Positions 14,522 to 36,050 of a DNA stretch of 63,012 nucleotides are shown here, piece after piece (positions within the stretch are counted from its first letter, which is position 1; the number at the start of each line of letters is the position of its first letter). The DNA comes from Alphaproteobacteria bacterium. Lineage in GTDB: Bacteria > Pseudomonadota > Alphaproteobacteria > Rs-D84. Where the stretch lies: positions 1 through 63,012 of the forward strand of contig JAFZUT010000006.1 of assembly GCA_017618175.1 (NCBI GenBank), read 5' to 3'. The notes below the pieces were generated by a model. The model ran no database searches. It worked only from the letters and a program-made list of their open reading frames with translations, and was not told the origin of the DNA. The position numbers were made by a program, and so were the translations under genes.

Positions 14522-14567
14522 ATGTTTTTCTCTTTTTTTATTATATTATCATACAAAGGAGCAAAAG

Positions 14568-15107: not shown

Positions 15108-15151
15108 ATTAAACGGGGCGGCAACGCCCCAAAATGTTTAATGGGGGCAAT

Positions 15152-17920: not shown

Positions 17921-17930
17921 AATTCAATAA

Positions 17931-19196
17931 TTACATTTGGATAAATGAACCCGGCTTGTCGACCATTTGCTCGATGGCTTGGTCCAAGATTTTGCGATAT
18001 TCCAAGAACTTCTTTTTGTTTTCCGCATCCAAATTGTTTATCGCCGGCAATTTAACCGTCATAGGATTCACGTGCTTGCCGTCCTTGATAATTTCATAAT
18101 GCAAATGCGGACCGGTGGAAAGTCCCGTTGAGCCAGAATAACCGATAATCTGGCCCTGCTTTACGGTCGTACCGACCTTTACATTTTTAGCGAATTTAGA
18201 CATATGCGCATACAGTGTTTCGAACGAACCATTATGACGAATTCTTATGAAATTACCATGTCCGCGGTTAAATCCACGCGCAACCACACGCCCCGCACCG
18301 GCGGACGGAATTGGCGTTCCGGTTGGTGCACGGAAATCGACACCTTTGTGTGCGCGGGTAAATCCCAAAACGGGATGTTTACGCCGGGTTGAAAAACTGC
18401 TGGTCACTTTGGCGTTATTGATTGGTGTACGCTTCAAAGATTTAATGGCGCCATTTCCATTCGGGTCGTAATAACCAACTGTCTTGTCCGATTTCCGGAA
18501 ACGATACATTTTAACATTTCCGCGCAACGCATCAAAAGAAACCACGACCACAGAGCCATTATCAACCTTTTCCCCATCGCGATAGTTTTCTTCATAAACC
18601 ACCGAAAATTTTTGACCGGCGCGCACGTCACGTTCAAAGTCCATTTCAAACGCCAACAAATCATAAACCTCGGCCAAGATTCCGGCGGGAATATCCGCGC
18701 GCATCCCGGCCAGATAAAAACTGTCCCCATCCAAAATTTCCCCTTGGCGATAAACCAGGCGCGTATCGCGTTCAATATCAACCGCATTGCATTGCCATTT
18801 GCCACCATCGTCACAGGTTAATTCCACACGGCGCCACGGTCCCGGAATAACGGTAATTTTTGACACGGCGGAATTTTCCCCATCACGCACAAATTCAATT
18901 TTATCACGATCCGCCCGCAGGCCGTTTATTCCCGCATCGGTTTTCAACACATTTGCAATTGCGTTTATATCGTTATGGCCCAGACCTTGCTCGCTTAACA
19001 ACTTTGACAAAGTATCACCCGGTGCGACACTGACAACGACGGGTTTGTTGGCCGCCGCAACCACCGTTTTACCGTTATCCATCCGGCGTCCAAAGACCAA
19101 CAATGTCACCACCGCGGCAACGGCCAAAACACCGGCAATCCACAAAACCGCACGGACAAATTTACCAGAGGTAAGAATATTTTTTGCTTTTTCCAT
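17931..19196 (-). CDS. M23 family murein DD-endopeptidase (MepM-like)
   Basis: N-terminal TM helix; HKGVDF and GPHLHYE Zn motifs. Confidence 0.9.
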   Translation of the reverse strand: MEKAKNILTSGKFVRAVLWIAGVLAVAAVVTLLVFGRRMDNGKTVVAAANKPVVVSVAPGDTLSKLLSEQGLGHNDINAIANVLKTDAGINGLRADRDKIEFVRDGENSAVSKITVIPGPWRRVELTCDDGGKWQCNAVDIERDTRLVYRQGEILDGDSFYLAGMRADIPAGILAEVYDLLAFEMDFERDVRAGQKFSVVYEENYRDGEKVDNGSVVVVSFDALRGNVKMYRFRKSDKTVGYYDPNGNGAIKSLKRTPINNAKVTSSFSTRRKHPVLGFTRAHKGVDFRAPTGTPIPSAGAGRVVARGFNRGHGNFIRIRHNGSFETLYAHMSKFAKNVKVGTTVKQGQIIGYSGSTGLSTGPHLHYEIIKDGKHVNPMTVKLPAINNLDAENKKKFLEYRKILDQAIEQMVDKPGSFIQM

Positions 19197-19217
19197 GGGG
19201 CACATTATAATGGTTTT

Positions 19218-19982
19218 ATGACAATAAATCAAGTTTTTGAAATCTTAAAAGATGCCGGTGGCATTCGCGCCGCCCGAATTATCACAGACAATATTAAAAA
19301 TCCATCACGACTGCGCGTTTGGATTATGGCACGCGCCCTGCGCCGCGGCACACCGGTTGCCAAGATTATTCATCAAAAATGGTTCTATGGATTAAAATTT
19401 TATACAAATAAATATACACTGGACCCGCGGCCGGACACCGAAACATTGGTCGCCGCGGTTATTGCGGACAACCCGGCCGCCCCAAAAATTTTGGACATCG
19501 GGACCGGGACAGGATGCATAATAATATCTTTGGTAAAAAATATTTACGGCGCATACGGTGTCGGCGTTGATATCTCACGCAGTGCAATTCGCGTTGCACG
19601 CCGAAATTTGCAAGATTTGGGCGTGGCCGATAAAATAAAAATATGTCGCGCTTCGTTCAACAATCCAAATATGGTGCATGAAAAATTTGATATAATTGTT
19701 TCCAATCCACCATATATTGCACGTGGCGATACGCGTGTTGACACCGGGGCAAAACACGACCCACGTATTGCGCTTTACGCAGACCGGGGCGGCACCGCGA
19801 CATACGAACAAATCGCAAAGAACGCAAAAAATTGGATTAAACCGAACGGCAAAATATATCTTGAAATCGGTGCGGGGCAAATGGCGGCCGTCAAAAAGAT
19901 ATTTGAATCCGCCGGTTGGAAATTCATCCGCGCCGAACACGACCTTGGCAACATAATTCGTGTTTTGGTATTTAATATTTGA
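19218..19982 (+). CDS. prmC: Release factor glutamine methyltransferase
   Basis: PRPDTE, LDIGTGTG and SNPPY motifs. Confidence 0.9.
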   Translation: MTINQVFEILKDAGGIRAARIITDNIKNPSRLRVWIMARALRRGTPVAKIIHQKWFYGLKFYTNKYTLDPRPDTETLVAAVIADNPAAPKILDIGTGTGCIIISLVKNIYGAYGVGVDISRSAIRVARRNLQDLGVADKIKICRASFNNPNMVHEKFDIIVSNPPYIARGDTRVDTGAKHDPRIALYADRGGTATYEQIAKNAKNWIKPNGKIYLEIGAGQMAAVKKIFESAGWKFIRAEHDLGNIIRVLVFNI

Positions 19983-20610
19983 AGAACGGATGATTTTGTT
20001 TTAGAAAGCCAATCATAGAATCTTCCCCGTGGCCGTGGACAACGTATGTATCATCGGGCAGGTTCAGTTTTTTCAGTTTTGCAATGGATTCTTGTAATCG
20101 CATCGCATCACCCCCCGGCAGGTCTGTACGCCCCACCCCGTCACGGAAAATGGTATCGCCGGTCAGTAAAATTTTATATTCCGGAAAGTAAAACATTACA
20201 CCACCCAACGAATGACCGGGCGACGCAATTATTTCCATTTCTATATCATTCAAAATTTTTGTTTTTCCCGCGTGCAAGTCGTGTGGCGCCACAAAATCAT
20301 CCGGAATGCGTGGTAATTCCCAAAAATCCAAAATTTGATTTCCCCACAGTATCAACGGCACATCGCGTGAATTCAAAAACCATGGCGCATCGTAATGCGC
20401 CGCCAAGCCGGGTGCCGCCGAAATATGGTCGCTGTGCCCATGTGTTGCATAAATCGCACGCAATTTTAATCCACGCGAATCCAATAATTTTATCCAATCA
20501 TCCGCCCTTCCCCACGCATCAAAAATAACACATTCGTCACCATTTGACACCAATATTGAATTGGTGAACTTTGGTTCCATTTGCAAGATTTCAAATTTAT
20601 TTTTTTGCAA
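19972..20610 (-). CDS. MBL-fold metallo-hydrolase (glyoxalase II/YcbL-like)
   Basis: THGHSDH, PGHS, TGD and HGH motifs; start uncertain (TTG 20610 or ATG 20580). Confidence 0.85.
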   Translation of the reverse strand: MQKNKFEILQMEPKFTNSILVSNGDECVIFDAWGRADDWIKLLDSRGLKLRAIYATHGHSDHISAAPGLAAHYDAPWFLNSRDVPLILWGNQILDFWELPRIPDDFVAPHDLHAGKTKILNDIEMEIIASPGHSLGGVMFYFPEYKILLTGDTIFRDGVGRTDLPGGDAMRLQESIAKLKKLNLPDDTYVVHGHGEDSMIGFLKQNHPFFKY

Positions 20611-22462
20611 CCTTGGCCTTTTTGACTTTTGGTTTGGCGGGCGATTTTTTACCGACAATTTCCAAGATTTCTTCACCGGTTAATGTTTCGCGCCGCAACA
20701 ATTCTTCGGCCAATTTTTTGACGGTCGCCTTGTTCTTTGTTAAAATTTTGACCGCGTCACGGTATGCATCCGCCAACCAAGATTTAATTTCGCCGTCAAC
20801 CAATTCTGCGGTTTTTTCGGACGCATTTTCCAACGGCACGCGCGCGCCAAAGGTTTGTGCTTGGTTGATTGCAACCAACCCGATTTTATTGGACAAACCG
20901 GCGGTTGTAATCGAACGCCGCGCCAAACGCGTTGCCATATCGATATCAGATTCCGCCCCGGTCGTAATTTTATTTGCACCAAAGAATATTTCTTCGGCGG
21001 CACGCCCCGCCAACGCAATGGCCAGGTTCGCGCGAATTTCGGCCAAAGACATTGACACTTTGTCATCAATCGGCAAATGTTGCACCATCCCCAATGCCCG
21101 TCCACGCGGAATAATTGTCGCCTTGTGAATTGGGTCGGTGACATCGGCATAGGCGGTACTAACGAACGCATGTCCGGCCTCGTGATACGCGGTCAATTTG
21201 ATATCTTCGGGCCGCATTTTACGAATTTTGCGCGGGCCCATCAGCAATTTATCGCGCGCTTCTTCTATATCATCGGGTGCAACCAATTTGTGACCTGCGC
21301 GCACCGCATGCAACGCCGATTCATTCAACAGGTTTTCCAAATCCGCACCCGAACATCCCGTTGTTCCGCGCGCCAATTCACCCAAATCCACATTGGGTTC
21401 CATTTTGATTTTCTTCGCGTGCAATTCCAAAATCGCCCGCCGCCCCGCCATATCGGGCAAATCGATATGAACCTGCCTATCGAATCGGCCGGGTCGCAAC
21501 AATGCCGGGTCCAACATATCCGGACGATTTGTCGCACCAATTACAATAATGCCGGTTTCATTAGAAAACCCATCCATTTCAATCAGCAATTGATTCAAAG
21601 TCTGTTCACGGTCTTGGTCATTAAAAGAATTCTGGCTGCGCCGTTGACCGATTGCATCGATTTCATCAATAAATAACAAACACGGTGCGTTGCGTTTTGC
21701 CATTTCAAAAATCTCTTTAATCTTTGCAACCCCCAGGCCGACAATTATGCCGGAAAAATCACTGCCCGATGCGGCAAAGAACGGAACATTTGCTTCGCCT
21801 GCAATTGCACGCGCCAAAAGTGTTTTACCCGTTCCCGGTTCGCCCGCCAACAATATTCCGCGCGGCACACGCGCGCCAACGGCGGCGAACTTTGATTTAT
21901 CGCGCAGGAAATCCACAACCTCACTCAATTCTTGTTTTTCCGAATCGATTCCGGCAACATCTTTGAATGTAGTTTTCGGTTTTCCGGTAACGATTTTCGT
22001 TGGGTTTTGCCCAAGCAATGTACGCGAAAGGCCACCCGCCCCACCGCGCAACCCACGGAAAATCCACCATATAAAAAACAATCCCATCAAAATCGGCACC
22101 CATGTCCCAAGGTAATCAACCCAACCCTTGGACGCATCAATTGAAACGACCGTTCCACCATTAGACAATTTTTCCAATAATTCCGGATTATATGTAATAA
22201 CCGCGCTGTATTTTGTACCGTCTTGTAATTGTCCGGTTGCAACATTATCGCGAATCTTCATAGTTTTTATTTCACCCGACCTGCGCAATACATCGGAAAA
22301 AGTCATCTCTATCGGTTCGGCCACAACGACATCGCCCAATTGGTTCACCCCCCCGCGCGACATAAATGCGCCACCAACCAACCCGGCAAATAAAATCGCA
22401 AACAAAATTAAAAACAAAGTGGAATTATTGCGTTTCTTATTTTTTAACATATTTTTTTCCAT
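20597..22462 (-). CDS. ftsH: ATP-dependent zinc metalloprotease FtsH
   Basis: Two TM helices, GEPGTGKT Walker A, SRH motif, HEAGH. Confidence 0.97.
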   Translation of the reverse strand: MEKNMLKNKKRNNSTLFLILFAILFAGLVGGAFMSRGGVNQLGDVVVAEPIEMTFSDVLRRSGEIKTMKIRDNVATGQLQDGTKYSAVITYNPELLEKLSNGGTVVSIDASKGWVDYLGTWVPILMGLFFIWWIFRGLRGGAGGLSRTLLGQNPTKIVTGKPKTTFKDVAGIDSEKQELSEVVDFLRDKSKFAAVGARVPRGILLAGEPGTGKTLLARAIAGEANVPFFAASGSDFSGIIVGLGVAKIKEIFEMAKRNAPCLLFIDEIDAIGQRRSQNSFNDQDREQTLNQLLIEMDGFSNETGIIVIGATNRPDMLDPALLRPGRFDRQVHIDLPDMAGRRAILELHAKKIKMEPNVDLGELARGTTGCSGADLENLLNESALHAVRAGHKLVAPDDIEEARDKLLMGPRKIRKMRPEDIKLTAYHEAGHAFVSTAYADVTDPIHKATIIPRGRALGMVQHLPIDDKVSMSLAEIRANLAIALAGRAAEEIFFGANKITTGAESDIDMATRLARRSITTAGLSNKIGLVAINQAQTFGARVPLENASEKTAELVDGEIKSWLADAYRDAVKILTKNKATVKKLAEELLRRETLTGEEILEIVGKKSPAKPKVKKAKVAKK

Positions 22463-23423
22463 GATATTTTTTCCTGATTCTAAAACTTGTCTTTTGACCC
22501 TCGGGGACAATTAAAATCTTGTCACGCAACCGGCGCACGGTGCAATGTCCAATTGTAAATTTGCAATCGGCACGCAATTTGTCCAATGCACCGATAAGCG
22601 AATTCAGTCGCGGTTGATACCTGTCCCCCCCAACCGTTTGAATAACCGTTCCAAGAAACTTTAGCCTAATATCGGGGCTCTGGTCAAATAGAAAAGATTC
22701 ACCAAACATCGCGCGATCATTCAACATAACGCGTCCAACCAATTTCGATACATAATCTTCCAAACTTTCGCGCACGCGCCCCATATTTTGAATTGCCAAT
22801 AAAACACGTTCATCCGTAATTCCCAACGCGTCCCCAACCAAGTGACGATTTTGCCGAATCTTCACACGGGTATAGTGCGGGTCGTCATTCATTTCGTCTG
22901 CAAAATATTTAATGCCGCGCGTATCACAGTATTCTTGCAATTCACGCCGAAAAACATTTAATAGTGGCCGCACAATTTTGATACCGTTCATTTCGCCAAC
23001 CCCGCGCATGGCGGCCAAACCATAAACCCCACTGCCCCGCCCCAGGTTCATCCAAAAAGTTTCAATCTGGTCATCGGCCTGGTGCGCGGTCAAAATAATT
23101 TTAATATGATTTTTATGGCAAAAATCCGTCATCAATTTATATCGTGCGCGGCGCGCCGCATCTTCCAATCCGGTTTCCGGTTTTTCGCCATCCCAAGAAA
23201 ACACATGGCATTCCACGCCTAATTTTTCACACAAGTCTTGGACATATTGGGCCTCGGTCGCCGCCGCATCACGCAAATTATGGTTCACATGCAGGCATAC
23301 CACATCTGCGCCAATTTCCACCAACCAGTGCAAAAGTGCGACCGAATCGACACCGCCACTGACCCCAACGGCCATTTTTTGGCCGAGATATTTTTGCATA
23401 AAATCCAAAAATTTTTTGTTCAT
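22437..23423 (-). CDS. tilS: tRNA(Ile)-lysidine synthase
   Basis: SGGVDS, HQADDQIET and RPLL motifs; conserved tilS-ftsH order. Confidence 0.94.
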   Translation of the reverse strand: MNKKFLDFMQKYLGQKMAVGVSGGVDSVALLHWLVEIGADVVCLHVNHNLRDAAATEAQYVQDLCEKLGVECHVFSWDGEKPETGLEDAARRARYKLMTDFCHKNHIKIILTAHQADDQIETFWMNLGRGSGVYGLAAMRGVGEMNGIKIVRPLLNVFRRELQEYCDTRGIKYFADEMNDDPHYTRVKIRQNRHLVGDALGITDERVLLAIQNMGRVRESLEDYVSKLVGRVMLNDRAMFGESFLFDQSPDIRLKFLGTVIQTVGGDRYQPRLNSLIGALDKLRADCKFTIGHCTVRRLRDKILIVPEGQKTSFRIRKKYHGKKYVKK

Positions 23424-23469
23424 AACCTTGGTATTCTATGCTATAATTCCGGAAAATAAAGGAAAAAGT

Positions 23470-24024
23470 ATGCAAAAATTAAATTCTTTGGCGGTTTATT
23501 GTGGTCACAGTTTTGGCACAGACCCGCAATTTGAACGCGATGCGGCACGTGTTGGTGAATTATTGGCACGGAATAAAATTCGTATGATTTTTGGCGGGGG
23601 TAATGTCGGCCTTATGGGAACAACGGCAACGGCGGCAATAAATAATGGTGGTGTGGTATTGGGCGTAACGACACATAATGTTGTCGCCAAACAAGAACCC
23701 GCCCACGAAGAAATAGATGTTGAAGTGGTCGATGGTGTAAACGAACGCAAACAACGTATGTACGAAATGTCCGATGGTTTCATCATTTTGCCGGGTGGAA
23801 TCGGCACGCTGAACGAATTTACAGATATTTTAACTATGCAGCAAATTGGCGAATCGGTAAAACCAATATTCTTTATGAACACGGCAAAGTTCTGGGAATC
23901 TTTTTCCCAAATGTTCTTGGTTATGCAGGACAGTGGATTTATTGAAAATGTTCACGACTATAATGTCCATGTTGCGGACACACCGGACGAATTGTTCAAA
24001 CAGATATTAAATTACGACAAATAA
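23470..24024 (+). CDS. LOG family nucleotide phosphoribohydrolase (TIGR00730-like)
   Basis: GGGNVGLMG, ERKQRM and LPGGIGTLNE motifs. Confidence 0.9.
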   Translation: MQKLNSLAVYCGHSFGTDPQFERDAARVGELLARNKIRMIFGGGNVGLMGTTATAAINNGGVVLGVTTHNVVAKQEPAHEEIDVEVVDGVNERKQRMYEMSDGFIILPGGIGTLNEFTDILTMQQIGESVKPIFFMNTAKFWESFSQMFLVMQDSGFIENVHDYNVHVADTPDELFKQILNYDK

Positions 24025-24026
24025 AG

Positions 24027-24248
24027 TTATTCTGGAATTTCGATAATTTTATCGCGCGCGGCACATCCGCGCACGATTTTTATTTGTGATTTTGGCAAAT
24101 CGAAATATTCCGCCAACAATTTTATGACTGCATCATTCGCCGCACCATCAACGGGCGCGGCGGTTATATGCACGCGTATGCGACCGTCTTCGGCGGTGAC
24201 TTTATTTTGTTTTGCACGCGGAATCACACGCAGGTTTATTCGCCGCAT
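24027..24248 (-). CDS. DUF167/YggU family protein
   Basis: VIPRAK, APVDGAAN and IVRGxxxRDK motifs. Confidence 0.85.
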   Translation of the reverse strand: MRRINLRVIPRAKQNKVTAEDGRIRVHITAAPVDGAANDAVIKLLAEYFDLPKSQIKIVRGCAARDKIIEIPE

Positions 24249-24622
24249 AACATACTCCGCATAATTTCTAAACACGCCGGCGTTTTGTCCCCGGCAATAA
24301 GGTGCATATGAAAATGAAACACGCTTTGATTAAACAACGGCGCGGCCAATCCCGCGTTTGCGAAAACATTAAATTCCGCCTTGATGCCTAATTTATCGGC
24401 GGTTTTGACAAAGCAATCCCAAAAACCGGCCTGTTCGGCGGCCGATGCACGCCGTGCAAAGTCCAAAATATTTTCATATTCGCCCTTTGGCACAACCAAC
24501 ACGTGCGTTTTGCACATTGGGTTCACATCATAGAAAGATATGGCATATTCATTTTCTACGACTTTTTTTGACGGAATTTCACCACGAATAATTTTTGCAA
24601 ACACATTATCTTTGTCGTACAT
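24236..24622 (-). CDS. HIT family nucleotide-binding protein
   Basis: NVFAKIIRGEIP and QSVFHFHMH motifs. Confidence 0.9.
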   Translation of the reverse strand: MYDKDNVFAKIIRGEIPSKKVVENEYAISFYDVNPMCKTHVLVVPKGEYENILDFARRASAAEQAGFWDCFVKTADKLGIKAEFNVFANAGLAAPLFNQSVFHFHMHLIAGDKTPACLEIMRSMLCGE

Positions 24623-24682
24623 AAAAATCCCCTTTGTTATCCCGATAAAATATAATACGCCTACAAAAATAAATCAAGCGGG

Positions 24683-25189
24683 TTAGCAGAACTGGTCTGT
24701 GCAAAAACCATTTACACATGCCCCACCACAAGAAAAACCATGACCGGCGCAATCGTTATCCGTATCACAGGACACCACGTCCCTTCCGTTCCACGGATCG
24801 TTACAATCATACGATGGTTCGCCCACGGCCATCAATAAACAGTTATTATTCGAATCATATTCCGAGCAATATACATTTGGCATTGCGTTATATACACATT
24901 CTGTTGCACGTGCTGCAACATCCGCCGTCACCAATTTATTCGCATCTGTATTCTCGTTATACCTGTTTCCGGCATATATTCCGCGTTCACCGATTGTGCC
25001 GGCGGTAGATGTATATGTGACAACGGTATCACCCGGCGTAGCACTGTTCGTGCCGGTGACGGGTATTTTATCTTGTTTCAATGCATCTTGGACATCGACA
25101 TAGTCCCGTGATGTGACGGTTGAACTTGTTGCGTATGCGTTGAACGCTAAAACTGATGCAATTGCACCAATGAATAATGCTTGTTTCAT
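24683..25189 (-). CDS. Secreted Cys-rich protein, family member 3 (MKQALF type)
   Basis: Likely start at 25189 after the shared RBS; body closely similar to 62490-63008. Confidence 0.85.
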   Translation of the reverse strand: MKQALFIGAIASVLAFNAYATSSTVTSRDYVDVQDALKQDKIPVTGTNSATPGDTVVTYTSTAGTIGERGIYAGNRYNENTDANKLVTADVAARATECVYNAMPNVYCSEYDSNNNCLLMAVGEPSYDCNDPWNGRDVVSCDTDNDCAGHGFSCGGACVNGFCTDQFC

Positions 25190-25229
25190 AATATTCCCCT
25201 TTATTCCTCGCTGTACAGTGTAACAAAAA

Positions 25230-25406
25230 GGTACCTTTTTTTGACCACCCCGCGAGATTTCGTAAGTCATTGATTTTACTGAATCGTATTTTCTAAAAAA
25301 AGTGGTGGACAAAAAGGTACCTTTTTGTCCACCATTTTTTTCAAAAAATTTTCTCAGTAATTTCAATGGTCCAATTTTTGACCGAGGTGGTGGTCATAAA
25401 GGTACC
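25230..25406. promoter_or_regulatory. Double switch: segments A and B back to back with three GGTACC sites, between divergent family genes (locus 3)
   Basis: GGTACC at 25230, 25316 and 25401; perfect 32-bp palindrome at 25303-25334. Confidence 0.75.
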
Positions 25407-25456
25407 TTTTTGTTACCATATAAACATACCAAACAAGCATAACAAAGGAAGGGAAT

Positions 25457-25912
25457 ATGAGGATTTCAATTCTTAGTATCGGTGCAATCGCATCCGTTTT
25501 AGCATTAAATGCATTTGCAACAACATCAACCGTCACATCACGGGATTATGTGGACACCCAAGATGCATTGAAACAGGATTTAATTGAGACAGATGATACC
25601 TATTGGGATGGTTATTTTGGTGTGACTGATACATTGGTAAGTAATGATGCGGAAGATGGCGATGGTATACAAGGCTATAAGTATGGGATATTTACAGATT
25701 CGTATGATATCAATAATATGGGGGGAGTTAGGTGGATTCTTTATAATGAAGACGCTTATCTGATTGGTAAAACCATACCAACCACTGCTGCCACCGCGGA
25801 CCTTATAAGAAATGCGACAAAAATGACATGCGTAGAGTATATAGGTGGACAGCAAAATGGTGTTCCGGAAGATTGCCTTCTTTGGCGAATGCCGGATAAC
25901 GCGGTTTGGTAG
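25457..25912 (+). CDS. Secreted protein, family member 4 (MRISIL type)
   Basis: Conserved N-terminus, TCVEY..CLLW motif, no Cys-rich tail. Confidence 0.85.
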   Translation: MRISILSIGAIASVLALNAFATTSTVTSRDYVDTQDALKQDLIETDDTYWDGYFGVTDTLVSNDAEDGDGIQGYKYGIFTDSYDINNMGGVRWILYNEDAYLIGKTIPTTAATADLIRNATKMTCVEYIGGQQNGVPEDCLLWRMPDNAVW

Positions 25913-25953
25913 TTAAAAACAGCCGCGTTTTCAAATGCTTTTGTTGGTTTTCA

Positions 25954-28299
25954 TTACTTCACGACACTAAAATTCACAACCGTTGTGGTGCCGGTGGTGT
26001 CGGTCGCACGCAGTGTGTGGTCGCCCATTGGAACATTGTATTCCAATGTTTCACCACTTTTGGTTGAACCCAATGTTTTGTCGTCCAAGAACCAGAATAT
26101 TTTATCGTCCGGATTTGTCGCCAAACCCATAAATCCAATTGGTTCAAAATCGTGCGCGGATGTTATAACCACCTTGGTATCGGGTGTTGGAAATACAACA
26201 ATCGGGGCGGTGCCATCATCCGGAATTTCGTTTATATCGCATCCCGGCATAAATGCCGGTGGGGTTTTGCGTTTGATTCCCGCGCGACGAAACATATCCA
26301 AATATTCCGCATCCCAAAATTCATAAATTTCCATATGTGTGGTCTTTGGGGCGGGCGAACACGCGCGCAGGCCCGTTTTGTTATCGATGGCAATTTGACG
26401 GTGAATGCGGTTGCGCGCAATTGGCGATTTGCCCGGAATAAAATAAGACAGTGTTTTTTGTGGGCAAAATTCGCCTGCAATATCGCCACCGATTTCGCAC
26501 ATTTCTATTTCGATTATATTCATATCGTCACGCAAAAATTTATTGTTCTGAATCGGTTTACCAACCCCGTTGTAGTATTCATTGGTTGCGTTTACCAATG
26601 CAAAATATATTGGTGCGGCGGCGCGCGCGCCACTGAACGCGTTGTTGGGTGTGCCGTCAAAATTACCCACCCAAACAATTAAAACAAAATCTCCAAATAT
26701 GCCCGCCGTCCACGCATCGCGATATGACGAAGATGTACCGGTTTTCCAATAGTGTTGAATCGTTTGACGCCCGGTTTTTGTAAACGGAACTTTCTTTGTC
26801 GGTACCGATTGATGCGACAACATATCAAGTGTAAGGAAAAATGCCTCGGGCGATAAAATGTGGTTAATAACTTCGTCCGGCGCATCGATTTGTGTGCGCA
26901 TCCGCCGATTGGTGCCAAGGTTCGCCATTGTTGCATAAATATGCGCCAATTCAAACATTGAAACTTCGGCCCCGCCCAGTGCGATTGATATTCCATAATG
27001 TTCGGGTGATTTAAGTCGCGCAACCCCCGCATCATTTAATAATTTATGGAAATTTTTGACACCGATTTCGCGCACCAAATTTATTGCCGGAATATTTCGC
27101 GAATGGGTCAATGCATCACGCGCCAGGACCGGACCGTAAAATTCGCTGTCCGAATTTTCGGGTGCATAAACACCAAAGTTTACACGCGCATCGCGCAACA
27201 AACTCATTTCGTGTATCAAACCCATATCCACCGCAGATGCATAAATCAACGGTTTTAATGTTGAACCCGGGCTGCGCCGTGCGCGCACGCCATCATTTTC
27301 ACCGTATATGTCGCGGTTAAAGTAATCCGCCGAACCGATATATGCCAATGTTTCCATCGTTTTATAATTTATTAAAATTGCCGCCGCGTTCGTGACACCG
27401 ATATTACGGCGTGCGTTTATTTCCGCGCTTAACGCGCGTTCTAATTTCTGTTGCAATTTCAAATCGATGGTCGTTTGAATTATTGATTTGTTGGTTTTCG
27501 TTTTGTTCATAAAATCTGTAAAGTGTGGCGCAAGAAACGGCAGGTCCGATACATTTTTCACCGCCAACGGCATCGCCGCGAAAGTTCGCAATTCTGTGTC
27601 GTTCGGGTATTCGGCAATCCATCGTTCAACCAAATTCGCGCGCATATTTTCGATGTTTTTAATTCCGCGTTCGGTGTTTAATCCGCGCTTGGTCGGGTTT
27701 TGTGGAACGGTCGCCAAAGTGATTGATTCTATTTTGGTTATGTCGCATGCGGGTCGACCAAAGTATATTGTGGATGCGGCCGCCACGCCTTCGATGTTTC
27801 CACCGTACGGGGCCAGGTTCAAATACGCTTCGATGATTTCATCTTTGGAATGAAACATGTCGATATAAATTGCCGCCGCAATCTGCATCATTTTCCCGCC
27901 GAATGTTTTACTGTTCAAATCGTATTTTATGCGTGCCAATTGCATAGTGATTGTTGATGCGCCAACGGGGTGTGGGATACCTGAAATATACTGGCGCGCC
28001 GCGCGCAGCATTGATATTGGGTTGATACCGGGATGACGGTAAAAATGTTTGTCTTCGTAAAGTACGACCGCATTGACTATATGCGGACTGATTTCATTTA
28101 GTGGTGTGTATATGCGATATTTGTCATCTGCAGACAATGTCAATCGCAACAGATTGCCGTTCCGGTCGTAATATGCATGCGAAAAAGACACGTTTGATAA
28201 AAGTGGTGCGGTAAAAAATATCCGTATAACCAACCAAGTGACGAAAATCGCGCCGAAAATAATTCCAATTTTTTTAGAAAATCTTTTAATCTTTGGCAT
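25954..28299 (-). CDS. pbpC: Penicillin-binding protein 1C
   Basis: EDKHFYRHPG, GASTITMQ, STLK, SRN and KTG motifs; directly follows the alpha-2-macroglobulin gene. Confidence 0.93.
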   Translation of the reverse strand: MPKIKRFSKKIGIIFGAIFVTWLVIRIFFTAPLLSNVSFSHAYYDRNGNLLRLTLSADDKYRIYTPLNEISPHIVNAVVLYEDKHFYRHPGINPISMLRAARQYISGIPHPVGASTITMQLARIKYDLNSKTFGGKMMQIAAAIYIDMFHSKDEIIEAYLNLAPYGGNIEGVAAASTIYFGRPACDITKIESITLATVPQNPTKRGLNTERGIKNIENMRANLVERWIAEYPNDTELRTFAAMPLAVKNVSDLPFLAPHFTDFMNKTKTNKSIIQTTIDLKLQQKLERALSAEINARRNIGVTNAAAILINYKTMETLAYIGSADYFNRDIYGENDGVRARRSPGSTLKPLIYASAVDMGLIHEMSLLRDARVNFGVYAPENSDSEFYGPVLARDALTHSRNIPAINLVREIGVKNFHKLLNDAGVARLKSPEHYGISIALGGAEVSMFELAHIYATMANLGTNRRMRTQIDAPDEVINHILSPEAFFLTLDMLSHQSVPTKKVPFTKTGRQTIQHYWKTGTSSSYRDAWTAGIFGDFVLIVWVGNFDGTPNNAFSGARAAAPIYFALVNATNEYYNGVGKPIQNNKFLRDDMNIIEIEMCEIGGDIAGEFCPQKTLSYFIPGKSPIARNRIHRQIAIDNKTGLRACSPAPKTTHMEIYEFWDAEYLDMFRRAGIKRKTPPAFMPGCDINEIPDDGTAPIVVFPTPDTKVVITSAHDFEPIGFMGLATNPDDKIFWFLDDKTLGSTKSGETLEYNVPMGDHTLRATDTTGTTTVVNFSVVK

Positions 28300-31200
28300 T
28301 TGAAACAGTGAACTTTTCGGTGTCCGTTGTTGCGCGAATTTCCGAATTATACATATCCATTGCCGCGACCGGTGGAACCGTGAATTCACCCGCCACAGAT
28401 AATTGAACGCGATATGTAAATGTTGTCGGGGTGCGCGAAAGCGGTGCATATATCAACACGCGATCTTCGCGAATTTCGTTGTGGGTCATATCGCCGGACG
28501 CAGAATCTGATATTGGAATAAATCCACCCGGTAATAAATCAGTTATGACCGCATTTCCAATATGATTTGTGCCACCGCGTGTACGTGCCGTGATTTTCAC
28601 ATCCAAAATGTCGCCGATTTCTGCGGAGTGAACCTTTTCACCGTCTGCATTATAATAATCGCGTGAAATATCAATGCCGTTTGATTCGGAACGTGCGATC
28701 CGTGGAAATCCCATAGTGACGATTGTATAAAATGCGGTGTTCTTGGATTTGCATATTTCACAATTTATACGTAATTTATCGGTGCCACGTGGAATATCAA
28801 CGATTACGGTTCCGGCATTTGATACCCGGTCCAGTTTTTTGTCGCCGGCCAAAACCGATATTTTGTCGCCGTCTAATGCGTCTGGGCCGGGGGCGTTCGC
28901 GGTCCCCATAAATATTGCCGCCGCAGTGAATGAATCATAATCACCACGGTTTATATAGTTTTGAATGTTCCGGGTCGCACGTTCGGGAACCATATCAAAG
29001 TAATTGCGCGCAATAAATGTGTACATTGCATCGGCCGCAACCGCGCCACCAAATTGCCCATCATAAACATCATCACCCGATTTATATTTTGATATTAAAT
29101 TGAATGCTTTGTCCGTTTGTTTTAACATTTTATAAGACGCCGCAATGTATGCACCGATAACAGTGTCCGACCAATTCTTGAAGTTTTCGGACATATATTC
29201 TTCCAATGAATCAATATAACTTGTTGTGACATAGTCATTCAAACTTAACGTATATATTGTGAACGCCTTGGCGTGGGCATCCGCCATCGATGTGGTTCGC
29301 ATTCCCGCATATGAACGCAGAAAATCAATGCCACGTGCGAACATAGATTGTGGAACATTGAACCCGCCGCGCCGTGCGATGGTCAAAAAGTTCATCGTGT
29401 ACGCGGTTAAATATGCCGTTGTTGGGTCGGTTTCATTATTTGGGGATGTGCCGGTGTCCGTCCACATTCCAAAAGAACCGTCGCCGTTTTGACGATTTGC
29501 CAAGGTTTGAATCGCCTTGTTAACTATGGCGGTGGAATCGGCACGGTTTGTTCCCAACAATTTATCTTCGGGTGATATCGCGTATGGCAATGCGCGCGAA
29601 ACCAATTGTTCAGTGCAATCAAATTCATAATGCGCAAGATACATAAACATTGGTCGCGACAAAATCGATAAAGACTTTGATATGTACAGTATGTTTGAAT
29701 ATTCCGCATCATACATATTGTTGTCGGTTATTCTTAGGTTGGTTTTTCCGGAATCCAAAACACCGGTTTTTATGTCTGTGCGGAACAGTGTCGCGGGTCG
29801 AACAGACATTTCGTGCGTTGTGCGGCGTGCCGCAATTGGATGATTTTTATCGTCAAACAATGTTGATGATACATCCAATGTGCCCGTCCCGGGTGTGTCC
29901 GCCGCGGTCACATTAAATGTCCATAATTTTTCCGTGTTTTCCGGCAAATTTAACAAACCCGAAGACTTTTCAATTGGCATCAATTTGCCACCTGCGATTA
30001 CATCATTTCGTGCCGTTGCGGCATTACCGGATTCCCCAGCAAGGTTTGATATTACCGTGTTCACGGTGAATTTATCGTTTGGCGCAACAACCAATGGCGC
30101 AGACACAGATATAATTACCGGCGATTGCACGCGGACATCTGTGTCGGCGGACCCGACACGCCCGGGTGCGGCGGCAACGGCATAAACACTTACACCCCCA
30201 TTGAAATATTCGGGAATATCAAAGGTTATTGTTTTGGGTGTGTTTGCGGTTGTATTGATTATTCCGGAGTAAAATGCAACTGGTGGCAAAGTTTTGCGCC
30301 CAAATGGATTGGTAAGTGGCGTGTCAATTCCACCAAATTCGCCTTCAAAATCGCTGCCCCCGATTTTTGCAACTTCGCGCAGGACGTTATATTCAGGCAA
30401 CAACAGTGACAATATTTGGTATGTTTCAACCTGAAGTGCGGCCTTTTGGAAAAAGTGCCGTAATGGGTTTGGAATAGAATAATTTGCAACCTGTAAAATC
30501 CCGGTGTTGACGGCAAACAGCATTACGCGCGCATCGGTGTCGGTTGTAATTTCTATTGGCAATTTGTTGTCGCGAACGGTTTTTGGCGTTTCTAATTTTA
30601 CGTTGATTTTATGCTTGTCGATACTGGTCGAAAACGGCGCAACCGCGTAAGTGTACGGTGTCGTGAAAATATCGCGACTGTTGATATCACGGACAAATGA
30701 AACATTTACATAACCGGTGCCTTCAAAATCCGTGGGCAAAGTGATTTTCTGGGTCGATGCGGTTGTGTCGGCACTGAACCATTTGTGGGCGTACACCCGG
30801 TCGCGTTCAATGGTGATAAGACCCGTTCCGGCATAGGGCGCAATGACGCCAATATTTATTGTGTCACCCGGTTTATATGCAGACGCGTCCAATTTGATTT
30901 GCAATTCTGCGCGTGAATCTTCGCGCAGTTCTGTATTTTCATTTGACGCAACGAAATATTCTATGTTTGCCAAAATATTTTCATTTGAATCCAATAATTG
31001 AACGTAATAGGTTCCACCGTTCAATGTGTTCAATTTTATTTCTGAACCGCTTTTCGACACAGAAACCTGGGATTGCGCAATAATCACATCATGTGATGTT
31101 GTTTGGTATTTATAATGATTATCATAGTCTTTTAATAAACTGGTCAGGTTTTCACGTTTTATCAATTTCATAGTGATATCATCCGCGTCAACTGCGTCAC

Positions 31201-34009
31201 CGGATGCATCCAATACAATCAGTTTGATTGTTGATGCGGAATTGCGGGGAATGTAATTCAGGTCTGATTCAGATTTATAACCAATCAATTTGTTCAGGTT
31301 TGATACACGTGAATTCAAAATTGTCTGGATGCTTTTGCCATCGCCGGCTTCAAATCCATTTATGGCCAAATTCAATATGTATGTGCCAATTGGAATTTCG
31401 CGGTCAAATTTTACATCAACCGTGGCATTGCCGTTTTCATCCGTACGAACGTCCATTGGGTCAACGGTAAACGTTTGAACCGCACGTGCCGCACCACCGG
31501 ACATTCCCGTTTTGGAATTAAAGTTTGATGTGAATTTATAATCGCGATAATCATCAAATGTGAAATCAACGGGGCGCAATATCGCGTGCGCAGAAATACG
31601 GCGGTCGGTCGCGGGTGTCCCGTACAAATTATTCAGTGACACATTTGCCGTCAAATTGTCCGGTGAAACCCATCCGGATTCAGATGAATTATTAATTGCG
31701 GCGATAATTTTCATTGTGTCGGGAACAAATTCTTGGACATTAAAATTACCGGTACCGATTGTGTCTTGGATATGTCCGCGGCCGTTCAGGGTATAAATTG
31801 CGACTTCGTAACGCCCCAATGGTGCATCGGTTGTCAATTTATGCGTGATATCAATCATACCGTCACCCGTCAAAGATACCTTTTTATCCAAAATCGTGCG
31901 GCCACGTGGATCGGTAATTTCCAATTTGACCGGAATATCGGCCATTGGTGAAAAAGTTTTGTTTTCAATAATTGCGCCGATTGTCAATGTTTCGCCCGGA
32001 CGGTAAATACCACGGTCTGAAAATATGAACGATTTTAATGGTGTGTCCATCATTGCATATGTGCCACCTACATCAAATTTGGAATATTCGGCGGATTCGG
32101 CCATGTCGGCATAGTACGGAATAAAAGAAACATCGGCATCGCGTCGGGCAACAATCGCAACGGGTTCTTTTTCATTTCGGTATTCATCACTTGAAAATCT
32201 TGGGATTTCGGCACGCCCATCGGCATCGGTGACCCCCGCCCATATTGGATAACCGTTGCGCCCCAATACCGTTACATCAATTTCCGCCGCGGGTTTCCCA
32301 TTTGACAGGTTTGATACAAACACAACAGACGACCCATCAAGGTTTATCTTGCGAATAATGCCAAGGTTGGTCAGCAATATTAAACGCGCATCGCCATATT
32401 CGGCGGCATTTTTTGTCGCACCGGTTTTGATAATGAATATGCCGGTTTTATCGGTATATGTTCTGTCCAGGTACTCGCCAAGGTTTAATGCAGCATAATT
32501 TACGCGATTTTTTGCCGTGTCAGAAAACGGAATTTTCTTTTGAAATACGCTGGACATATCATAGGCATCGAAAATCCATGGTGCGCGAAATTCCAAATCA
32601 GAAAACAAGTTGTACGTTTGCGTAATAAGGTGGTTGATTGCGTTTGATTCAATCTTGTATAAATTTATATATGCCGCATCAACACCGCCACGTGCGACAA
32701 TTGCCAATTTTTTATCGCCCGCCAAAGACAACAATGCCCCGCCACCCATAATTTTGACACTGCATTCTGGATATGCCACAGGAATTACGCGGTTGATGCC
32801 ATTTTGGGTCGTAAATCCGTTTGCCGAATGTATATCGGGTTTGATTGTCACATACAAATACCTTGGCACCGTGTCGGAAACATCATAAGAAAACGCGTAT
32901 TGATATGTTCCCGCCGGATTCACAAAATGTGCACGTGTTAATTTTATTTTTTGGGATTTATTTATAACATCCGCCGTAATTTCATCGTTTGCCCAGGCGT
33001 GGGATTCATCGGTATTTTCATCGCTAACGGTATTGCGCGGCAAAAGGTACGCATCAATATATTTATCCCAATTTGTGCTTTCCGCCGCGGCCGCGGTCAT
33101 ATCTATTAAAATCAATTGTTGCGGGGTGCCGTATTTATCATCTGCGGTAATTGTCGATAAATTTGATATTTTGAAAAAATTGTCCGCAGAATCAATTATC
33201 GTATGTGCAGTGATTTTTTTGGTACGTGACAGACCGTCCGCATCATATATCCGGTTCAGTTTGAATCGCAGTGTGCGCGATTTATCGGTTATTTCAATTG
33301 GGTCGGTGCGAATAATTGCGGTGCGCATATATCGGTCTATTTTGACCTCAAAGTTTAATCGTTGCCCGCCAAGTCGCATTGAAACCTTGTCCGCAAAGTC
33401 ACGGGTTTGTATTGGATAATCAAAAGATATTACCGCAACACCAATAACCGCGCGATCACCACCCGGGGCCGGGTATATGTTAAAAAGATCGATTTTTGCG
33501 GTAATGGGCGCCGTTTTGAAAGATATGTGTCGTGTGTTGGGACGCACATCACGCGGGAATAATTTTTCACCAATCTTTACATTGAATTTTGTTTCGGCCG
33601 GCCAATCGGCATCGGGCGTGAACGCAATTTCGTACGGATTCACAAAAGACCATTTCCCGCGAATGGCGGGTGAAATCTTGATGTTTTGTGCCAATTCAGA
33701 TCGTGACATATTCGTGTTGAACGCGGGGGCGCCCGGTCCAGATACATAATCATATGAAATACGCAATGAATCCGCCGGTGCAATGTCGCGATTGTTATTC
33801 GTGTCCGGTGTATCATTTAATAAAACCGTTGACTTATCGTCTGTAAAGTGTGCCGCAATTGGTGCATTGACCGAAACATCCACCCGGGTAATTTGTGCAT
33901 TGTGTGATGAAATCCAATAGAAACCAAGGCCAAAGAAGACCGCGGCGGCGACAATAATCCCCAAAATTCGTATTATGCGGGACGTCCAAATGCCTGTTTT
34001 CTGCAACAT
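28286..34009 (-). CDS. Bacterial alpha-2-macroglobulin (YfhM-like)
   Basis: 1907 aa; SDRGIYRPGE motif, thioester CTEQ, QNGDGSFGMW and EIREDRV motifs. Confidence 0.92.
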   Translation of the reverse strand: MLQKTGIWTSRIIRILGIIVAAAVFFGLGFYWISSHNAQITRVDVSVNAPIAAHFTDDKSTVLLNDTPDTNNNRDIAPADSLRISYDYVSGPGAPAFNTNMSRSELAQNIKISPAIRGKWSFVNPYEIAFTPDADWPAETKFNVKIGEKLFPRDVRPNTRHISFKTAPITAKIDLFNIYPAPGGDRAVIGVAVISFDYPIQTRDFADKVSMRLGGQRLNFEVKIDRYMRTAIIRTDPIEITDKSRTLRFKLNRIYDADGLSRTKKITAHTIIDSADNFFKISNLSTITADDKYGTPQQLILIDMTAAAAESTNWDKYIDAYLLPRNTVSDENTDESHAWANDEITADVINKSQKIKLTRAHFVNPAGTYQYAFSYDVSDTVPRYLYVTIKPDIHSANGFTTQNGINRVIPVAYPECSVKIMGGGALLSLAGDKKLAIVARGGVDAAYINLYKIESNAINHLITQTYNLFSDLEFRAPWIFDAYDMSSVFQKKIPFSDTAKNRVNYAALNLGEYLDRTYTDKTGIFIIKTGATKNAAEYGDARLILLTNLGIIRKINLDGSSVVFVSNLSNGKPAAEIDVTVLGRNGYPIWAGVTDADGRAEIPRFSSDEYRNEKEPVAIVARRDADVSFIPYYADMAESAEYSKFDVGGTYAMMDTPLKSFIFSDRGIYRPGETLTIGAIIENKTFSPMADIPVKLEITDPRGRTILDKKVSLTGDGMIDITHKLTTDAPLGRYEVAIYTLNGRGHIQDTIGTGNFNVQEFVPDTMKIIAAINNSSESGWVSPDNLTANVSLNNLYGTPATDRRISAHAILRPVDFTFDDYRDYKFTSNFNSKTGMSGGAARAVQTFTVDPMDVRTDENGNATVDVKFDREIPIGTYILNLAINGFEAGDGKSIQTILNSRVSNLNKLIGYKSESDLNYIPRNSASTIKLIVLDASGDAVDADDITMKLIKRENLTSLLKDYDNHYKYQTTSHDVIIAQSQVSVSKSGSEIKLNTLNGGTYYVQLLDSNENILANIEYFVASNENTELREDSRAELQIKLDASAYKPGDTINIGVIAPYAGTGLITIERDRVYAHKWFSADTTASTQKITLPTDFEGTGYVNVSFVRDINSRDIFTTPYTYAVAPFSTSIDKHKINVKLETPKTVRDNKLPIEITTDTDARVMLFAVNTGILQVANYSIPNPLRHFFQKAALQVETYQILSLLLPEYNVLREVAKIGGSDFEGEFGGIDTPLTNPFGRKTLPPVAFYSGIINTTANTPKTITFDIPEYFNGGVSVYAVAAAPGRVGSADTDVRVQSPVIISVSAPLVVAPNDKFTVNTVISNLAGESGNAATARNDVIAGGKLMPIEKSSGLLNLPENTEKLWTFNVTAADTPGTGTLDVSSTLFDDKNHPIAARRTTHEMSVRPATLFRTDIKTGVLDSGKTNLRITDNNMYDAEYSNILYISKSLSILSRPMFMYLAHYEFDCTEQLVSRALPYAISPEDKLLGTNRADSTAIVNKAIQTLANRQNGDGSFGMWTDTGTSPNNETDPTTAYLTAYTMNFLTIARRGGFNVPQSMFARGIDFLRSYAGMRTTSMADAHAKAFTIYTLSLNDYVTTSYIDSLEEYMSENFKNWSDTVIGAYIAASYKMLKQTDKAFNLISKYKSGDDVYDGQFGGAVAADAMYTFIARNYFDMVPERATRNIQNYINRGDYDSFTAAAIFMGTANAPGPDALDGDKISVLAGDKKLDRVSNAGTVIVDIPRGTDKLRINCEICKSKNTAFYTIVTMGFPRIARSESNGIDISRDYYNADGEKVHSAEIGDILDVKITARTRGGTNHIGNAVITDLLPGGFIPISDSASGDMTHNEIREDRVLIYAPLSRTPTTFTYRVQLSVAGEFTVPPVAAMDMYNSEIRATTDTEKFTVSNAKD

Positions 34010-34257
34010 AGATAAATTCTCCGTTCCTGATGCTTTTTTTATATTAGAGTATAAATATTAAAACACAAGTTTTTTGTTTGGAAAAATGTCGTAACAAAAT
34101 GTTAAAAATCACTTGCTTTTTTTAATTTTTTGTCATATTATGCGGGCACGTGCCGAATGGTGCGAAGAACACAACCATCGTGGGAATTTCTGTCCGGGCG
34201 ACCGGTTTTATGCATCCCCAGATGGCGAGGATAACAACAGAAATAAAAGGATTTACT

Positions 34258-35115
34258 ATGGCATTGCCAACTTTTACTATGCAACAATTGATGGAGGCCG
34301 GCGTTCATTTTGGACACCACACCCGTCGTTGGAACCCGTTGATGACACCCTATGTTTATGGCGTCAAAGATAAAATTCATATTATCAATTTGAACAAAAC
34401 TGCACCGCTGCTGCATCGTGCATTGGTTGCGTTGGAGGCGATTGCCGCCGCCGGTGGCAAGGTTTTGTTTGTCGCAACCAAGCACCAGGCCAAAGATATC
34501 GTCAAAGATGCGGCCGAACGTTGTGGTCAATTCTATGTGAACAATCGTTGGTTGGGTGGTATGTTGACCAATTGGACAACCGTTTCACAATCTATTCGCC
34601 GTCTGAAAAAGATGGAGGCGGATATTGAAAATGCCAATAAATTGGGTCTGACCAAGAAAGAAGTCGGTGTTATGACCAAAGAAGTTGCGAAATTGCGCGA
34701 TATTTTCGGCGGTATTTTGGATATGCACGGTGTGCCCCAGGTTATGATTGTTATTGATGTTCCGCGTGAAATGAACGCGGTACGCGAAGCGAAAAACCTG
34801 GACATTCCAACAATTGCAATTTGTGATACGAATGCGAATCCGGAAATGGTTGATTATCCGGTTCCGGGTAATGATGACGCGGCGCGTGCAACACAACTGT
34901 ATTGCGATTTGTTCGTAGATGCGATTTTGTCCGGTATTGAAAAACGCCTGGGCGGCGCGGCCGGCAAGAAAGTCGAATCGAATATGATTGATGAACACGA
35001 TGCATTGGAAGAAGAAATGAAAGATAAAGAAGCCAAACAAAAATCCAAGGCTTCGGCGTCACGTGCCGAACGTCGTGAAAAATTGGCGGACAAGACAGAA
35101 AAAGCCGATAAATAA
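34258..35115 (+). CDS. rpsB: 30S ribosomal protein S2
   Basis: EAGVHFGH, RWLGGMLTN and PGNDDA motifs. Confidence 0.97.
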   Translation: MALPTFTMQQLMEAGVHFGHHTRRWNPLMTPYVYGVKDKIHIINLNKTAPLLHRALVALEAIAAAGGKVLFVATKHQAKDIVKDAAERCGQFYVNNRWLGGMLTNWTTVSQSIRRLKKMEADIENANKLGLTKKEVGVMTKEVAKLRDIFGGILDMHGVPQVMIVIDVPREMNAVREAKNLDIPTIAICDTNANPEMVDYPVPGNDDAARATQLYCDLFVDAILSGIEKRLGGAAGKKVESNMIDEHDALEEEMKDKEAKQKSKASASRAERREKLADKTEKADK

Positions 35116-35180
35116 TCTGTAATATAAATATGTGGGCGCGGTGGCGCGTCCACACAACAAATTTAGCAAAGGGGGAAATT

Positions 35181-36050
35181 ATGGCAGAAGTCACAGCGAA
35201 ATTGATTCAAGAACTGCGCGAAAAAACATCCGCAGGTATGATGGATTGCAAAAAGGCATTGATTGAAAATAATGGTGATATCCAGGCGGCGGCCGATTGG
35301 TTGCGCCAAAAAGGTATTGTCAAGGCGGCGTCCAAGGCCGGCCGCGTGGCGGCATCGGGTTTGGTGACCGTCGTAAAATGCGATAATATGGGTTGTGTCG
35401 TTGAATTGAACGCCGAAACAGACTTTGTTGCGAAAAACGACAAATTCCAAAAATTGGTTGCCGATGTTGCGAACAAGGCTTTGGAATTGTCCGGTGATTT
35501 TGACGCAACACTGGCCGCGGTCAAAGACGATATTGCATCCACAATCGCGACAATTGGTGAAAATATGAATCTGCGCCGTATTGCAAAAGTTTCAGGCCAA
35601 CATATTTTCAGTTATATTCACAATGCATTGGTTCCGGGCATGGGGCAAATTGGTGTTGCGGTCGCAATTGATGGTGATTCGGATAAAATTGCCGAAATCG
35701 GTCCAAAAATCGCGATGCACATTGCGGCGAACAAACCGGAATTTATGACCATTGCCGATGTTGATCCGGCGGCGGTTGAACGCGAGAAAAAAGTGTTCAT
35801 CGAATCTGGGGCAACGGCGGGCAAACCGGAAAACATCGTTGAAAAAATGGTGAACGGTCGTTTGCAGAAATACTATGCGGAATCGGTTTTGGAAGAACAA
35901 CCATTCGTTATGGACCCGTCCAAGACCGTTAAACAGGTTTTGAACGAAGCCGGCGGTAAATTGGCAGGATTTGCTTACTTTGTGTTGGGTGAAGGCATTG
36001 AAAAACGCAATGATAACCTGGCGGATGAAGTTGCAAATATGTTAAAGTAA
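35181..36050 (+). CDS. tsf: Elongation factor Ts
   Basis: AGMMDCKKAL and ETDFVA motifs; follows rpsB. Confidence 0.97.
   Translation: MAEVTAKLIQELREKTSAGMMDCKKALIENNGDIQAAADWLRQKGIVKAASKAGRVAASGLVTVVKCDNMGCVVELNAETDFVAKNDKFQKLVADVANKALELSGDFDATLAAVKDDIASTIATIGENMNLRRIAKVSGQHIFSYIHNALVPGMGQIGVAVAIDGDSDKIAEIGPKIAMHIAANKPEFMTIADVDPAAVEREKKVFIESGATAGKPENIVEKMVNGRLQKYYAESVLEEQPFVMDPSKTVKQVLNEAGGKLAGFAYFVLGEGIEKRNDNLADEVANMLK

Follow-up and report, generated by a model that had tools for sequence, protein, structure and literature searches.

The 268-bp spacer between two divergent genes at positions 25189–25457 (start codon to start codon) of a 63,012-nucleotide alphaproteobacterial contig, JAFZUT010000006.1, consists of two copies of a standard, genome-wide unit placed head to head, with one distal site in common. 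With a probability that we put at roughly 0.75, these are two miniature invertible promoters (‘invertons’), each standing before a gene of a secreted cysteine-rich family and flipped by an invertase of the Mpi family. The stretch analysed, hereafter the window, is one whole contig of a genome of 891,628 bp (G000; 29 contigs, estimated completeness 95.9%). Each unit comprises a movable segment between two recombination sites, and the ends of the segment are unlike: End1 carries an A-tract and the hexamer TGGACA, End2 has TGGTCA at another spacing and no A-tract. The parts of the locus are listed here by their positions in the window:

24683–25189, minus strand: left family gene, 168 amino acids, with signal peptide, conserved N-terminal part and cysteine-rich variable tail
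25217–25222, minus strand: fixed −10-like hexamer TACACT with a preceding TG-T in the left gene leader, equivalent in position to TACCAT of the flipped unit described below
25220–25249, no strand: site 1, on the gene side of the left unit, where fixed half GTAACAAAAAGGT meets End2 of segment A (TGGTCA + A7), the orientation read as off in the genome census
25236–25315, no strand: segment A (A type, movable), End1 toward the centre; a type that 4 of the window's 6 units have
25295–25311, plus strand: End1 of A, with A-tract 25295–25301 and TGGACA 25306–25311, directed away from the left gene
25303–25334, no strand: shared central site, TGGTGGACAAAAAGGTACCTTTTTGTCCACCA, a perfect 32-bp palindrome formed where End1 of A and that of B join; core GGTACC at 25316–25321
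25322–25400, no strand: segment B (B type, movable), End1 toward the centre; type shared with unit 57448–57544
25326–25341, minus strand: End1 of B, with TGGACA 25326–25331 (TGTCCA on the plus strand) and A-tract 25335–25341, directed away from the right gene
25390–25416, no strand: site 3, on the gene side of the right unit, where End2 of B (TGGTCA-TAAA) meets fixed half ACCTTTTTGTTAC, likewise in the orientation read as off in the census
25414–25419, plus strand: fixed −10-like hexamer TACCAT with an upstream TG-T in the right gene leader, which is identical to the leader of the flipped unit
25457–25912, plus strand: right family gene, 151 amino acids, assigned from its open reading frame and the family alignment

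The three GGTACC cores start at 25230, 25316 and 25401 and are thus spaced 86 and 85 bp apart, and the segments between them, 79–80 bp long, are non-coding and lie upstream of two complete genes. The central palindrome is perfect because both End1 ends meet at the shared distal site; it scored as a hairpin with a stem of 14 bp and a loop of 4 nt, and imperfect symmetry reaches out to 25288–25349 (31-nt arms, 90% complementary). The first ~107 nt of the two divergent genes are 83% complementary to each other. Counted with up to one mismatch, the 12-mer AAAGGTACCTTT has 12 copies in the window, 11 of them exact; 0.09 would be expected, and 0 of 100 shuffles reached 12. The perfect palindrome and the three sites described in the initial annotation, which had been made from the letters of this DNA, are confirmed by these counts, and its observation that the TGGACA ends point inward, away from the genes, holds for both copies (25306–25311 and 25326–25331), which lie in the central site.

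The same unit recurs throughout the genome. Exact cores number 52 in the 0.89 Mb of G000, and a census of gene-proximal sites found 27 on 17 contigs, every one of them (27/27) with a partner site 85–86 bp upstream and a family gene downstream; one extra unit with variant cores lies beyond this census. The standard order is a distal fixed half-site (…TGGTCA-A-rich-GGT), a core, an 80-bp segment, a second core, a proximal fixed half-site (ACC-TTTTTGTTAC), a leader of ~40 nt and the gene, so that each recombination site of ~26–30 bp is composed of two half-sites flanking the symmetric GGTACC core. The distance between GTAC and GTACC is 90 or 91 nt in 45 of 45 segments (36 distinct) from three genomes. 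Mixed-type cores also exist (GGT|ACC, CGT|ACC, CGT|ACG and GGT|ACG), which fits strand exchange at the core centre. Outside the locus, paired cores start in the window at 53/139, 6089/6175, 41112/41198 and 57448/57533, in every case shortly before a paralogous gene:

49–154, plus strand: A-type unit, read as off, preceding gene 189–710
6085–6190, minus strand: unit with flipped segment, probably on, whose End1 adjoins gene 5538–6041; the reference unit
41108–41213, minus strand: A-type unit, read as off, preceding gene 40121–41062
57444–57548, plus strand: B-type unit, read as off, preceding gene 57583–58092

Proteins of the family are 150–310 amino acids long and, in the alignment, share a signal peptide, a conserved N-terminal part of ~70 residues and a variable cysteine-rich tail; an invariant N-terminal …TVTS-x-DYVD…KQD… and a C-terminal cysteine pattern TC-EW…NCLLW are also seen. 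A Pfam search of the family proteins matched no family, and all homologues (n = 232) are unnamed or annotated as ‘hypothetical protein [Alphaproteobacteria bacterium]’, again with no Pfam domain.

The evidence for inversion comes from copies that differ in orientation. In 24 of the 27 G000 units the order toward the gene is the distal site, GTCCACC and a T-run (End1 facing away), a central motif …TTCAGTAA(AA/TT)TCAAT…, End2 and the proximal site, with End2 reading GGTGGTCA followed by A7 in the A type, TAAA in the B type and CA6 in a third variant; one more unit has the End2 variant GGTGATCA. End1 is kept in all 45 segments of the three genomes. Its half of the segment is conserved from type to type and from species to species, and the central motif is conserved too, whereas the End2 half diverges strongly between types. 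The window unit at 6089–6186 is the exact inverse of its paralogues: both flanks match those of the paralogue C5:207, and the inversion is confined to what lies between the cores, so that the seven T of End2 lie at the distal site and the five A of End1 at the proximal site. Because the flanks are unchanged and the inter-core stretch is inverted, the exchange points must lie within the 16 bp AAAAAGGTACCTTTTT that every site shares. A flipped A-type unit is present in a metagenome-assembled genome (MAG) from goat (L125, identical to L066), and a flipped B-type unit in the sister genome G094 (C3:~371905–372020), in which the other 14 switchable units fetched are unflipped. In a red-deer MAG, 26 junctions were classified by eye, with End1 at the gene leader in 5 and at the distal flank in 21. 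Both orientations are therefore seen between paralogous loci and between genomes, four genomes in all, and the proposal of recombination-type sites with movable promoter segments is upheld to that extent.

The geometry of the flipped unit suggests how inversion could control transcription. A promoter scan found TGGACA, a 17-nt spacer and TACCAT with an upstream TG in the flipped unit 6089–6186 and in no unflipped one; in 25189–25457 nothing rose above shuffles and no TGGACA/−10 pair was scored. In unflipped units TGGTCA stands 19 nt (A type) or 17 nt (B type) from the −10, in both cases with no A-tract. Of the two promoter elements, the −35 travels with End1 and the −10 stays in the fixed gene leader, beyond the invertible segment; the A-tract of End1, just upstream of the −35, is placed where an UP element would sit. 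The fixed half-site of G094 differs (…TTTAATGCCATAAT), yet with End1 proximal it places CATAAT 18 nt from TGGACA, which argues that the split promoter arrangement is selected.

In the mechanism that we propose, a small serine invertase of the Mpi family, encoded beside another unit elsewhere in the genome, would invert the segment by strand exchange within the core. When End1 lies at the gene, TGGACA would come to stand 17 bp upstream of the fixed TG-extended −10, completing the promoter and turning the gene on; with End2 at the gene, the promoter would be weak or off. At the locus, where the shared distal site holds both End1 ends centrally, both genes would be off. They are read as such because no promoter was scored and the End1 ends face the centre, with a polarity that we infer from this geometry and with a weaker state that may be ‘low’. 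Flipping A alone would turn on the left gene by setting TGGACA 17 nt from TACACT, and flipping B alone would turn on the right gene by recreating the scored promoter, since the right leader is that of the flipped unit. The assignment of A to the left gene and B to the right in the initial annotation thus agrees with the promoter geometry (TGGACA-17-TACACT and TGGACA-17-TACCAT), but no alternative arrangement of the locus was seen, and switching at the present day would be a further step.

A candidate for the catalyst is present. G000 encodes three serine recombinases (one of 199 amino acids, two of ~545) and four tyrosine recombinases. The 199-residue enzyme (C9; L001:153–752) has its best match in NCBIfam NF009949, ‘master DNA invertase Mpi family’, with E 9.1e-81 over residues 3–197, and matches Pfam Resolvase with 113.6 bits; the nearest solved structures are DNA invertases and resolvases (best PDB entries 4m6f and 3uj3, E ~1e-7). 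Its start codon lies ~30 bp from a unit with the proximal end GGGGGACA. Orthologues at 93% and 79% identity occur in two other site-carrying genomes, the 79%-identical one, in G094, beside the same neighbouring unit, and homologues were found in 80 of 101 genomes of the genus, in several of which there is an upstream divergent secreted gene with species-specific palindromes. This enzyme would be the likely agent of the flips. In both G000 (L001:783–905, C9) and G094 (L037), the unit beside the invertase is unusual: one of its cores is a variant, and the end at its gene reads GGACA or TGGATA. In both species it may be a locked-on copy. HU- and IHF-like genes are present in the genome, with scores below the curated cut-offs. 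An IHF-type bend site in mid-segment was considered and set aside as a mere idea: the A-type centre fits the consensus, the B types poorly.

Several observations weigh against this account. The invertase scores 270.4 bits against NF009949, 1.6 below the curated cut-off of 272; the 93% orthologue in the goat MAG has no adjoining unit, the red-deer MAG has the same End1 site and a best invertase homologue of just 45% identity, and G055 has a 79%-identical invertase and no AAAGGTACCTTT core. A segment of 86 bp would be very short for a serine-invertase loop. In B-type and G094 units, the on and off states would differ by little beyond TGGACA versus TGGTCA and the A-tract, and the TG-extended −10 might act in both states, making ‘off’ merely ‘low’. 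Switching within a population gained no support from sequencing runs: the Logan contigs from 4 of the 20 runs holding part of the window, compared over 5800–25750, end at the repeated units (for example at 25195–25199) and bridge none of them; loose contig ends (for example at 6102) could derive from paralogous loci with the same leader. A metagenome scan returned 21 loci, none of them orthologous to this locus, records near the window's own genome having possibly been left out, and most of the 21 belong to a different organism with a related GTTAC...GTAAC palindrome.

The composite structure of the locus is rare. Head-to-head triple sites occur at two loci in G000 (25189–25457 and C2:51539–51721) and at none in 256 other genomes of the genus, the scan of which gave one unrelated GC-rich match, in G163. 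The second G000 locus (L133) has a B type on the left and an A type on the right, End1 ends again central, and its central core, CGT|ACC, is a hybrid of the kind that exchange of halves at the centre would give. A tandem array of two segments and three sites stands before a single family gene at C17:~13830–14060 (L136:~1030–1260), with cores CGTACG, CGTACC and GGTACG. The initial annotation had proposed for this locus a shufflon-like switch with up to eight arrangements. At least three sites do bound at least two adjacent segments here, but these are non-coding and do not form alternative coding ends of one gene, one arrangement was seen, and no orthologous composite locus was found in the 256 other genomes; the locus is not a dedicated shufflon but a fusion of two ordinary two-site units, found in G000 only, and the figure of eight is a matter of arithmetic. 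The joint flip that was to swap the segments fares no better, as no swapped form was seen and swapping A and B would alter no expression state, because both segments bear equivalent ends.

The central site contains End1 of A and End1 of B and no outer half-site, which is what core exchange or deletion between two distal sites would be expected to leave. In G094 both units lie by the same genes (the left unit by a gene for a HIT protein, the right by a PBP gene), but they are 11 kb apart and co-directional. When window positions 20012–40093 are compared with G094:C3:372519–393071, blocks 25313–36053 (25953–36053 together with its unit) and 36113–40093 are each inverted in place, and one breakpoint coincides with the two distal sites. 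A reciprocal outer|outer site is not present at the matching synteny breakpoint, 36053–36113, and the block inversions are therefore not ascribed to the invertase. The goat MAG has a still different order of these blocks, and its corresponding junctions carry no units.

Excision, which had been thought conceivable, may have left a trace in the goat MAG, where a site without a segment stands before a family gene: L121 runs from a terminator through a distal-type half-site, one core and a proximal half-site to the gene, and its distal flank is in part 95% identical to that of the complete G000 unit C14:327–424. This solo site fits excision between cores, and slippage between 16-bp direct repeats fits too; none of the 27 G000 units is a solo site. 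On a larger scale, whole cassettes of gene plus unit are precisely present or absent between genomes, which indicates that the family grows and shrinks by cassette gain or loss. Cassettes of ~0.8–1.15 kb (window 40121–41269; G000 C17:~40370–41150) are precisely absent in the goat MAG, where their flanks lie 19–27 bp apart. An apparent 27-kb inversion in C17 relative to the goat MAG was discarded, being in fact the presence or absence of such a cassette.

An active three-site shufflon, in which single flips, inversion between the outer sites swapping A and B, and excision would produce up to eight arrangements per population, is possible and, on balance, unlikely. The symmetric GGTACC core has no built-in polarity at the crossover, and composite loci recur (C2:51539–51721 and C17:~13830–14060), but at the window locus no arrangement other than the present one was seen, and with equivalent A and B ends a swap would be neutral for expression state. 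The goat solo site has a distal flank orthologous to that of a complete G000 unit, yet is explained equally by slippage between the 16-bp direct repeats; likewise, the precise one-site fusion lacking outer half-sites is the expected product of a distal core-to-core exchange, but the outer|outer counterpart is missing at 36053–36113. A broader version of the same idea is tentative at best. As the crossover core is symmetric, the invertase could perhaps pair any sites, joining any two of ~55 in either alignment and giving 86-bp flips, excision to a solo site and exchanges between units. The palindrome 25303–25334 would then be the scar of a core exchange or deletion between distal sites, and the whole a genome-wide recombination network of perhaps the smallest natural invertons.

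The polarity of the proposed invertons could also be the reverse: genes would be expressed with End2 beside them, and off or differently regulated with End1 beside them. This is rather improbable. The End2-proximal orientation is that of 24 of the 27 G000 units, plus the one with a variant End2, but ~25 paralogues left on would make a switch with little variation; a fixed TG-extended −10 might have no need of a good −35, and the B-type TGGTCA also stands 17 nt from it, yet the conserved end is End1, with its A-tract and better −35, a promoter was scored in the flipped unit only, and the units adjacent to the invertase have a GGACA or TGGATA end at the gene. It is quite improbable that the elements are static, their palindromes serving as operators, hairpin terminators or insulators and their flips being rare accidents that are no longer catalysed. 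The central palindrome is indeed terminator-like (as RNA, −28 to −29.5 kcal/mol, z −7.5 to −8.1), but ordinary sites fold no better than shuffles (z 0.3, −0.7 and −1.8), and when hairpin plus U-run was examined as a general property of the sites, in an intrinsic terminator test, the central palindrome alone qualified. As ordinary sites have no excess folding, the hairpin is a by-product of the End1|End1 fusion and not a function of the sites, although it possibly acts as an insulator at this locus. Nearly all copies have one orientation, as a static element would, and no variation within a population emerged from the contigs, which stop at the units; against this are the exact flips in four genomes, the strict length of 85–86 bp and an intact Mpi-like invertase in 80 of 101 genus genomes, often adjoining such a unit. 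A mobile repeat resembling a miniature inverted-repeat transposable element (MITE), inserted either way round, would also be short, with inverted ends and many copies, but is barely credible given the fixed distance to a family gene and the conserved outer half-sites on both sides in 27 of 27 units; moreover, the flanks of the flipped unit are those of C5:207, with the reversal limited to the inter-core stretch, and target-site duplications were not seen.

Inversion of promoters by the Mpi-like enzyme would have close parallels. PMC4747536 describes Mpi of Bacteroides fragilis as a serine recombinase inverting 13 regions, among them seven polysaccharide promoters. The likeness would lie in one small serine invertase acting on many dispersed promoter segments with a shared inverted repeat to vary surface molecules. 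By contrast, the present system would belong to a 0.89-Mb alphaproteobacterium, with ~27 units, segments of fixed length (85–86 bp), a promoter split between a movable A-tract and −35 and a fixed −10, head-to-head fusions, and single small protein genes rather than polysaccharide operons as targets. In Mycoplasma penetrans, PMC2268961 and PMC10502178 report 38 mpl genes, each thought to be switched independently by its own adjacent invertible promoter, and the former names Xer-like tyrosine enzymes as candidate recombinases. The mpl (P35) system likewise pairs a small genome with a large surface-protein family under promoter inversions, but its genes form three clusters, whereas here they are dispersed and the candidate is a serine invertase. 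Overall, the units would work like Mpi-type global promoter inversion and the mpl switches, and would differ in lineage, copy density (~27 per 0.89 Mb), length, split promoter and fused loci.

Other switches are more distant. The hix and gix sites of the Hin/Gin/Cin/Pin group have a 2-bp centre flanked by two half-sites with an A-tract, a layout that the sites described here may share. These enzymes, too, are small serine invertases, but they flip a single segment of 1–4 kb, usually one with the invertase gene and an enhancer, whereas here segments of 80 bp are found at many loci, the enzyme gene lies outside, the centre is symmetric and no Fis-type enhancer was identified. Shufflons of the R64 type share with the locus at least three sites bounding at least two adjacent invertible segments; they shuffle the coding ends of one gene by a tyrosine recombinase, in contrast to the promoters of two genes and a candidate serine invertase. 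The fimS switch of E. coli similarly provides on/off control of a surface structure by inversion of a promoter segment, but is a single 314-bp element that holds a whole promoter and is inverted by tyrosine recombinases together with IHF and Lrp. In PMC12306168, which deals with Enterousia, ‘invert’, ‘recombinase’ and ‘phase varia’ have no occurrences, and a literature search combining inverton, Alphaproteobacteria, serine recombinase and rumen found no paper.

If the system is active, a bacterium with a 0.89-Mb genome maintains one master invertase and ~27 independent switches to vary a family of secreted cysteine-rich proteins, which would point to strong pressure on its surface from host, phage or neighbours and would extend Mpi-type inversion beyond Bacteroidota to uncultured, reduced-genome gut Alphaproteobacteria. 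An 86-bp inverton of fixed length, with a promoter assembled across the recombination site, would test the lower size limit of serine-invertase looping and make a very compact genetic memory part, and the fused double unit would show how such sites can rearrange the chromosome too.

Further elements were seen around the units. Short repeats of the GTGGTTAGTG kind follow upstream genes, placed after the stop codon and before the CCGGCGG...CCGCCGG terminator (6255–6330, 36050–36070, 57385–57405 and many distal flanks), and a small element with inverted GTCATCCCGG / CCGGGATGAC ends and a MITE-like look occurs in some leaders and flanks (G000 C9:41330–41440 and C22:6590–6690; G094:C3:387480–387760). 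Two decayed units were found in G094 (L035, at G094:C3:~409255, and L028, at G094:C3:~260): in one, the proximal site runs straight into the signal-peptide coding region, with neither leader nor start, and in the other the distal core is gone. Segments in the red-deer MAG (L064–L105) have the same End1 and core and are longer, ~140 bp, with an internal hairpin. Many metagenome contigs (L042–L062) carry a related perfect palindrome, made of two GTAAC-type halves, before other genes.

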